Shown piece after piece: positions 6,037 to 6,857 of a stretch of DNA of 14,254 bases. The notes below the pieces were generated by a model that was given only the letters and a program-made list of their open reading frames with translations, was not told the origin of the DNA and did no database searches. Each line of letters opens with the position of its first letter. The first letter of the stretch is position 1. Source of the DNA: a virus. Lineage: Duplodnaviria; Heunggongvirae; Uroviricota; Caudoviricetes. The stretch lies in the IMG/VR virus record IMGVR_UViG_2721755727_000004; one strand, given 5' to 3'. Both the position numbers and the translations under genes were made by a program.

Positions 6037-6857
6037 GAAATCGTCCCCAGTACCGCCAGTTCGTTTTTCGCAATGGAGATATTGTCCACCGGTGCAAGCA
6101 ACTGATGGCTGTATTCCCCGTTCGCACCGGAAATCGCCTCACTGATACGCGATACCTTGAGTTCTCCCTGCGGATAACCATCACGCAGCAGGAACGAACG
6201 CAACTCCGCGGTAATGGCAGCCCGTATTTCTGGTGTGTCCGGCGTCACGCGGATATGAAAATCCACCGTATGTGCCACCGGCCTGAACACATACAAATCA
6301 GAGCCTGCCACCGGGGCCAGTGGCCCGATATGTTGTCTTGCCGCCGTTTCCGTTGATTCTTCCGGAATGGGATTAATCAGGTCACTGCTGGCAATCATCA
6401 CACCGACAGTTCCCGTTCCCATCAAGTGACGGTATGTCCATGCGCGGGTAATGCCGGGCACTTCTTTAGCCCAGACGACATAGTCCCCGTCAGCCCCGCC
6501 CTGCGGCGTCCAGTAATACCGCTCAATGACGCGGGCGCGCCACGTTTCCAGCTCTTCAGTATCAAATCCGCCTGTCAGGGTGTCAGCCACACCGGAAGAC
6601 GGCAGACCATTCACCGGCGTGACCAGGATTAATGCCGTACCGTCGTCAGCGTTACCGACCGCACCTGCACTTGAGCAGGCGATCGGCACGCGCAGGACAC
6701 CACCGGAGCTGGTTGCATCGTCAGTTGTCGTGTACTGCACCAGGTCATCGCGCTGAATAACACTCCCGGCGGTCACCTTCAGGCCATCGCTGACACCTTC
6801 CCAGCGCATATACCACACAGCCGGGATCGACGGGCAGCAGTTCAGCCACTTCGCCAA
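6027..6857 (-). pseudogene. jayE: Baseplate J-like protein, C-terminal fragment
   Basis: Baseplate-J-like sequence from GLKVTAGSVIQRDD onward; the N-terminal 25 codons of the ORF are an out-of-frame reading of portal-derived DNA. Confidence 0.75.

Follow-up and report, generated by a model that had tools for sequence, protein, structure and literature searches.

A 12.7-kb deletion joint with 4-bp microhomology between the portal (beeE) and baseplate-J (jayE) remnants of Escherichia coli K-12 prophage e14

The DNA analysed here, which we refer to as the window, is a stretch of 14,254 nucleotides from the IMG/VR virus record IMGVR_UViG_2721755727_000004. A megablast search of complete Escherichia coli genomes revealed that window positions 5400-8800 are 100% identical, over their full length, to E. 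coli K-12 MG1655, C600, J53 and many other laboratory derivatives. The matching MG1655 region (L001), whose coordinates exceed those of the window by 601, is annotated in RefSeq as the cryptic prophage e14. Specifically, this annotation includes icd', mcrA, pinE, tfaP, tfaE, ymfQ, ymfR, ymfL, ymfT, ymfK, ymfJ, xisE, intE and lit, together with the cohE/croE region, the tail-fibre/pin inversion region, integration in icd and a tail-fibre gene marked as truncated. The open reading frames (ORFs) of the window tell of the same gene context, including McrA, a Pin-type invertase, tail-fibre assembly genes, a LexA-like repressor, an integrase and Lit. Published gene lists for K-12 e14 give the order ymfR, beeE, jayE, ymfQ and already use the names beeE and jayE. 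The feature examined here is the known beeE/jayE pseudogene junction of this defective lambdoid, Mu-tailed prophage, and the coordinates of its parts are collected in the table.

Features at and around the beeE/jayE junction (window coordinates)
Feature	Position	Strand	Description	Evidence
ymfQ	5452..6036	-	intact Mu gp48-like baseplate wedge gene	Pfam Phage_Mu_Gp48 (93.6 bits), RefSeq
jayE	6027..6814	-	C-terminal part of baseplate J (Mu gp47-like), codons 92-352 of 352 and the stop	Pfam, BLASTP
Out-of-frame tail of portal ORF	6745..6810	-	21 codons (YALGRCQRWPEGDRRECYSAR) plus stop, from baseplate-J DNA	
Deletion joint	6811..6814		4 bp of microhomology (TACC) shared by the two parental sequences	three-way base-by-base comparison, BLASTN
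beeE	6811..7218	-	portal N-terminal fragment, codons 1-136 of 413	Pfam, BLASTP, PGAP
Spurious 5' extension of ORF 6027-6857	6815..6857	-	codons 1-14 (MAKWLNCCPSIPAV), portal DNA read in another frame	
ymfR	7218..7400	-	intact gene of a 60-aa membrane protein, located between the terminase and portal genes	RefSeq
aaaE	7412..8548	-	terminase large subunit C-terminal fragment	Pfam, PGAP, colinearity
Second deletion joint	8546..8548		3-bp microhomology ACC	three-way alignment
oweE	8549..8779	-	N-terminus of a replication protein O-like protein (HTH)	Pfam HTH_36, 689R6 alignment

Two minus-strand ORFs meet at this junction, one of 157 codons with a GTG start (6745..7218) and one of 276 codons with a TTG start assigned mechanically (6027..6857), and they share exactly positions 6745-6857 in different frames. 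The earlier note, which was made from the letters of the window, had read them as a portal N-terminal fragment overlapping a baseplate-J C-terminal ORF, and the ORF coordinates, Pfam and BLASTP all agree with that description. On the upstream side the portal stump is preceded by ymfR, whose homologue in phage SfI is gp03, a 'membrane protein'. The GTG start of the portal overlaps the TAG stop of ymfR by one nucleotide (TAGTG, 7216-7220). Directly downstream of jayE lies ymfQ.

The product of the 157-codon ORF scores 79.8 bits on the Phage_portal family (PF04860), for which the cut-off is 39.1 (E = 2.7e-22), but it covers only positions 2-92 of the 321-position profile. A guide to what is missing is vB_EcoM-689R6 (ON470584.1; 689R6 hereafter), an intact relative in the same orientation that is likewise integrated in icd. 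BLASTP shows amino acids 1-136 to be identical to the 413-aa HK97-type portal of 689R6, after which the match breaks off. The PGAP pseudogene 'phage portal protein, missing C-terminus' occupies exactly the interval assigned to beeE in the table. Portal codon 136 (GTA) falls within the joint, and the stop codon of the ORF, at 6745-6747, lies in baseplate-J DNA. Thus the assignment of this ORF to the portal stands for its first 136 codons and fails for the last 21, which are baseplate-J DNA read out of frame.

The 276-codon ORF matches Baseplate_J (PF04865) with 155.9 bits against a cut-off of 21.1 (E = 1.6e-45) over profile positions 23-255 of 255. Amino acids 16-276 align with residues 92-352 of the 352-aa Mup47 protein of 689R6, and BLASTP to this protein found no baseplate-J similarity upstream of Y16. 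Codon 15 (W, 6813-6815) straddles the joint. PGAP lists a pseudogene, 'baseplate J/gp47 family, missing N-terminus', at 6027-6821. The only upstream 'start' available to jayE is the mechanical TTG inside portal DNA, and by-eye inspection found no convincing Shine-Dalgarno sequence before the first internal ATG (6807-6809).

Alignment to the full-length proteins therefore leaves portal residues 1-136 of 413 (33%) and baseplate-J residues 92-352 of 352 (74%). True gene content amounts to 136 of the 157 codons of the first ORF and 261 of the 276 codons of the second, the remainder being out-of-frame read-through across the joint. The two genes do not share a reading frame across the joint, and the portal ORF therefore reads 21 codons of jayE DNA and then stops, while jayE is left without a start of its own. 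Both products belong to their families by homology, as Pfam and BLASTP agree, but neither is full length: the portal fragment lacks the complete domain needed for a portal ring, and baseplate J lacks residues 1-91. They are therefore remnants rather than functional members of these families. We conclude that beeE and jayE are dead, and that the overlapping ORFs are a mechanical by-product of the joint.

The joint can be placed to the base. When window positions 6027-7400 were used as a megablast query against phage genomes, the query split sharply in two. Its first part, query positions 1-788 (window 6027-6814), aligns at 96-97% identity with baseplate genes of SfI, SfII, SfIV, SfV and 689R6, whereas positions from 785 or 786 to 1374 (window 6811 or 6812 onward) are 97-98% identical to ST64B, phi467, 606R7 and others in their portal region. 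By BLASTN, window 5135-6814 corresponds to positions 1998-3675 of the 689R6 sequence (L004) at 96.5% identity, and window 6811-8548 corresponds to positions 16331-18068 at 98.0%. Both segments are colinear with 689R6, one in its baseplate region and the other in its portal/terminase region, and the two lie 12.66 kb apart there. A DNA identity of 96-98% sustained over kilobases is far more than chance would give. The corresponding BLASTN segments for SfI overlap at the identical four bases, 6811-6814. At the level of single bases, the window continues perfectly with its baseplate parent to ...CATATACC and with its portal parent from TACCACACAG..., and this comparison with 689R6 found no filler DNA at the joint. 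The earlier note had expected a breakpoint somewhere between about 6786 and 6815; the alignments put it at the upper edge of that range.

Other E. coli records share the parental sequences seen at the joint. A 200-nt query spanning the junction matched 1,601 E. coli records, and in the 40 of these that were sampled, matches to the baseplate side alone end at 6814, apart from one gapped run-on of a few bases, and matches to the portal side alone begin at 6811, give or take one base. The TACC tetranucleotide occurs at portal codon 136/137 and at baseplate-J codon 91/92. Since the nearest intact relatives differ from e14 by 2-3.5%, the shared sequence could be as short as the 3 bp ACC; in a minority of intact portals the T of TACC is replaced by C. 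Taken together, these alignments point to a deletion joint between beeE and jayE, at which approximately 12.66 kb would have been lost from an ancestral intact prophage, and we give this reading a probability of about 95%; no observation speaks against a deletion as such. The earlier note had called the junction a deletion scar, and the truncation of both fragments relative to full-length orthologues, which abut with no intervening DNA, bears this out.

To follow the scar among genomes, a 44-nt junction probe was used, either half of which is too short to seed a match by itself. The probe sequence is present in 283 of 5,426 complete E. coli genomes, once in each and always on the chromosome. 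Sixty of these 283 were sampled. Nearly all are K-12 laboratory derivatives, most with names such as MG1655, DH1, DH5alpha, BW25113, J53, S17-1, XL1-Blue and TG1, and O16:H48 mouse-gut isolates are also among them; all 60 genomes are 4.5-4.8 Mb in size. The 200-nt query additionally matched a larger genome, PJ-T13 (4.94 Mb). More than 1,000 E. coli genomes have a portal that is intact across the site. A 29-mer from the portal side, searched in viral, GTDB-genome and metagenome contigs, gave a similar picture, with the intact flank in 204 of 214 occurrences and the K-12 e14 flank in the other 10, which share an identical 45-nt flank. From the sampled genomes, the scar would seem to be a lesion specific to one lineage and passed on clonally, and the 44-nt junction sequence can serve as a practical marker of K-12 DNA.

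Two contigs carry these sequences under unrelated names. The K-12 e14 joint occurs in JASOTH010000442.1 (L133), a 265-bp contig of coverage 0.95 from an assembly labelled 'Brevibacterium sp. UMB10442', which is probable contamination with E. coli K-12. An intact-type portal sequence is found in a metagenome-assembled contig binned as 'Bacillota bacterium' (L132), which is probably mis-binned.

A junction of this kind might instead be a natural boundary between mosaic modules, or an error of sequencing or assembly. Lambdoid genomes are indeed mosaic, and the two flanks differ in their identity to 689R6 (96.5% versus 98.0%). Against a module boundary, both genes are cut in the middle of a domain and joined out of frame, and the alignments to full-length orthologues, together with the more than 1,000 intact E. 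coli portals, rule it out. An assembly artefact is likewise ruled out by the reproduction of the joint in 283 independent complete assemblies. Between them, these two explanations retain almost no probability, and a deletion remains our reading of the locus.

A different question is whether the truncated portal has acquired a use. The overlap with ymfR would bring ribosomes to the 157-codon stump if the operon is transcribed, and one might imagine that the coupled product acts, for example, as a dominant-negative portal against superinfecting SfV- or e14-like phages. The stump does keep its native start, overlapping the ymfR stop, and 157 open codons, and the window contains lit and mcrA, the defence genes that e14 is known to have kept. 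However, RefSeq calls the fragment a pseudogene. Conservation is uninformative in this respect, since all 283 copies are clonal K-12 DNA with essentially no differences among them. A scan of the joint for newly created promoters and terminators found none, its counts being within shuffle expectation. We regard co-option of the stump as very improbable, and treat it as debris of the deletion.

The size and content of the missing interval are given by the intact relatives. Relative to 689R6, the window lacks 12,659 bp at the joint; relative to SfI, it lacks 12,692 bp. In the 689R6 annotation this gap holds 17 complete coding sequences. Among them are homologues of Mup46, Mup45, Mup44 and Mup43, the tape measure, two small ORFs of the chaperone region, the tube, the sheath and Mup38. 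The others are two neck/tail-completion proteins, the head-tail adaptor and connector, a small ORF, the major capsid protein and the prohead protease. The deletion also took the C-terminal two thirds of the portal and codons 1-91 of baseplate J. The functions removed include chaperones, a DNA-circulation protein and the baseplate hub, spike and wedge. The claim that everything normally found between portal and baseplate is missing is thus borne out, and the proposed search for related intact prophages that keep the interval led to 689R6, with phage SfI as a second intact relative.

With the genes for protease, capsid, connector, sheath, tube, tape measure and baseplate hub gone, particles cannot form, and this loss alone suffices for that. 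To this extent the earlier note was right to connect the missing interval with an inability to form particles. The interval is not the only lesion: e14 also has a tail-fibre gene annotated as truncated and a second deletion, of about 10.65 kb, that independently disables the prophage. The beeE/jayE deletion is therefore not the sole cause of defectiveness.

This second deletion has left a clean joint between oweE and aaaE. About 10,653 bp are absent there relative to 689R6, comprising the rest of gene O, the nin-region genes, Q, the lysis genes, an HNH gene, the small terminase gene and the terminase N-terminus. Colinearity with the 689R6 terminase stops at 8548, and PGAP records the terminase fragment (7412-8548) as a pseudogene with 'missing N-terminus'. 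The oweE segment aligns to the 689R6 gene for 'DNA replication protein O', with a PGAP HTH pseudogene at 8603-8779. Here the two remnants are joined in frame, such that the first 77 codons of an O-like HTH protein lead into the last 378 codons of the large terminase subunit. The resulting chimeric ORF (7412-8779, minus strand; oweE/aaaE, formerly ymfN) encodes 455 aa, in which Pfam recognizes HTH_36 at aa 23-70, TerL_ATPase from aa 78 (profile positions 118-174 of 178) and TerL_nuclease.

The two deletions together remove 23.3 kb. Prophage e14 is 15.2 kb in size (PMC6379469), and the sum of approximately 38.5 kb is the size of SfI (38,389 bp). The gene order of 689R6 indicates how the missing parts would have been arranged: pin, mcrA, tail fibre, Mup48 and Mup47 are followed by the complete tail and head module and the portal, and beyond a ymfR-like gene and the terminase come the lysis genes, Q, replication O, ymfL, the repressor, xis and int, with icd next to them. 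The ancestor of e14 was probably an intact prophage of approximately 38 kb in icd, like 689R6 and close to the Shigella phages SfI, SfII, SfIV and SfV.

Two further differences between the window and 689R6 lie outside the deleted intervals. The pin-mcrA segment and the C-terminal segment of the tail-fibre gene (window 3485-3687) are inverted (window 1636-3687 versus L004 1-2025), and the tfaP/tfaE region, at approximately 3688-5134, has no counterpart in 689R6. Presumably the tail-fibre region inverted by Pin is in another state or rearranged in one of the two, or else there is an assembly issue in the 689R6 sequence, which is a 'partial genome' record.

How might the 12.66 kb have been lost? 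In the simplest scheme, a single illegitimate recombination between the two TACC tetranucleotides would have removed the entire interval. Both flanks are colinear with one intact relative and nothing is inserted between them. The shared sequence is longer than chance would usually provide, since a random joint should show microhomology of at least 4 bp in approximately 1.6% of cases and of at least 3 bp in approximately 5%. A repeat search found no direct or inverted repeats of at least 9 nt linking the two endpoints, and no IS element lies at the joint. A clean joint with 4 bp in common, and with no filler, IS element or repeat, fits illegitimate recombination at short homology. Candidate pathways would be replication slippage, RecA-independent single-strand annealing, alternative end joining and gyrase-mediated exchange. 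Both the one-step loss and the recombination pathway are inferred.

All four Chi sites (GCTGGTGG) of the window are on the minus strand, at 6909-6916, 3192, 7265 and 9476. The first of these lies 95 nt inside the retained portal side and is oriented for RecBCD entry from the deleted side. We considered whether Chi-directed RecBCD processing could have set the endpoint, and rejected this because RecBCD would degrade past the joint before reaching Chi. With the Chi site beyond the joint on the retained side, the position of the endpoint is left unexplained by it.

The same final joint would also result if several successive, nested deletions had occurred in place of one event. Prophage decay is generally stepwise, e14 has at least one other independent deletion as well as a truncated tail-fibre gene, and intermediates would be compatible with the data. 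No intermediates are seen, however: the 45-nt flank is the same in every sequence that carries the junction, the site is intact in all other copies sampled, and a single step is the more parsimonious account. We therefore consider a nested series unlikely and favor the loss of the interval in one event.

Relevant to the mechanism is a second truncated portal that is broken at the same nucleotide. In strain PEC41 (NZ_CM168023.1; L006 7993-8409), an unrelated CDT-I lambdoid prophage near zinT/yodB, at another chromosomal locus than e14, carries a 594-bp island consisting of a ymfR-like gene and a portal stump. Homology of this stump to intact portals starts exactly where that of e14 does (L004 16331; window 6811), whereas its partner is a tail-fibre gene joined through TAC microhomology. 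The stump is 98.3% identical to the intact 689R6 portal and 96.8% identical to the K-12 stump, and this closer relation to the intact gene makes the PEC41 truncation look like an independent event. A third case comes from E92 (NZ_CP119734.1; L127 4267-6780) and also E94, in which an 837-aa annotated 'portal protein' is an in-frame fusion of terminase large subunit and portal; this joint, with 7 bp of microhomology, is 22 nt away from the position of the e14 break. Approximately six further E. coli records give partial matches near the portal site, which may be diverged portal alleles rather than truncations.

Such coincidences raise the possibility that a recombination hotspot, either site-specific or driven by structure, breaks the portal gene at GG/TACC, rather than random short homology having been used. 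A recombinase pseudo-site, a restriction cut at the GGTACC palindrome with subsequent end joining, or a replication pause could be responsible. Reuse of the portal nucleotide by PEC41, with another partner and apparently independently, is not expected of random microhomology use, and the nearness of the E92/E94 joint and the ACC at the second e14 scar lend some further weight. Other observations speak against a hotspot. No third partner type is found among the 214 occurrences of the portal-side 29-mer, and the PEC41 joint is unique to one of the 5,426 genomes. DNA folding reveals no unusual hairpin around the portal site (z = +0.6), repeats are likewise absent, and the partner sites are not GGTACC. 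By a rough estimate, one exact coincidence has a chance of approximately 0.1-0.2, given the few truncations in the ±70 nt surveyed.

Because there are no further partner types among these occurrences and no structural peculiarity at the site, a true hotspot is rated unlikely; as the origin of the e14 joint we find it quite improbable. That portal codon 136/137 is a recurrent breakpoint, used in K-12 e14 and PEC41 and approached to within 22 nt in E92/E94, is scarcely probable. If it were one, a sequence-directed process would preferentially decapitate this set of morphogenesis genes immediately behind ymfR and the N-terminal part of the portal, with a nuclease or recombinase pseudo-site, or selection that keeps ymfR and the portal stump, as candidate causes. 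Only in that case would the PEC41 coincidence hold modest interest for the study of prophage decay. Recombination between chance short homologies therefore remains our preferred account of the e14 deletion.

The joint itself is already known, in that both of its halves are RefSeq pseudogenes, beeE and jayE, in a well-known defective prophage. In 2004, Mehta, Casjens and Krishnaswamy reportedly called b1151 and b1152 putative pseudogenes and b1149 a replication-terminase fusion, and are said to have noted the similarity to SfV. What is added here is the exact TACC joint at 6811-6814, the gap of 12,659 or 12,692 bp, the codon limits of both remnants, the ACC joint and the distribution of the scar. 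In addition, the icd-integrated 689R6 permits the ancestral phage of approximately 38 kb to be reconstructed. Beyond bookkeeping of this kind, the importance of the findings is small.

Compared with K-12 e14 as annotated, in which beeE is b1151 (ymfO) and jayE is b1152 (ymfP), the window has the same sequence and the same neighbours, ymfR and ymfQ, and shows no difference. In its form the joint resembles other short-homology deletions of E. coli and of decaying prophages, in which a large segment of a single replicon is lost and the joint is clean, with 3-4 bp shared and neither an IS element nor a long repeat at the endpoints. Unlike what random use of microhomology would lead one to expect, its portal nucleotide is used again in PEC41.

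Among phages and prophages, 689R6, SfI, SfII, SfIV, SfV and the e14-like prophage of strain S88 are 96-98% identical in DNA sequence to e14 on both sides of the joint. SfI is a functional Shigella myovirus by morphology, and its orf1-22 are homologous to the e14 prophage of S88 (PMC3636060). The e14-family and SfV-group temperate myoviruses share the order terminase, ymfR-like membrane protein, portal and, later, baseplate J, gp48-like protein and tail fibre, and 689R6 resembles e14 further in its icd integration, int/xis, repressor, pin and mcrA. Whereas the intact relatives keep the 12.7-kb head and tail interval, and 689R6 also keeps the 10.65-kb interval from replication to terminase genes, K-12 e14 has lost both.
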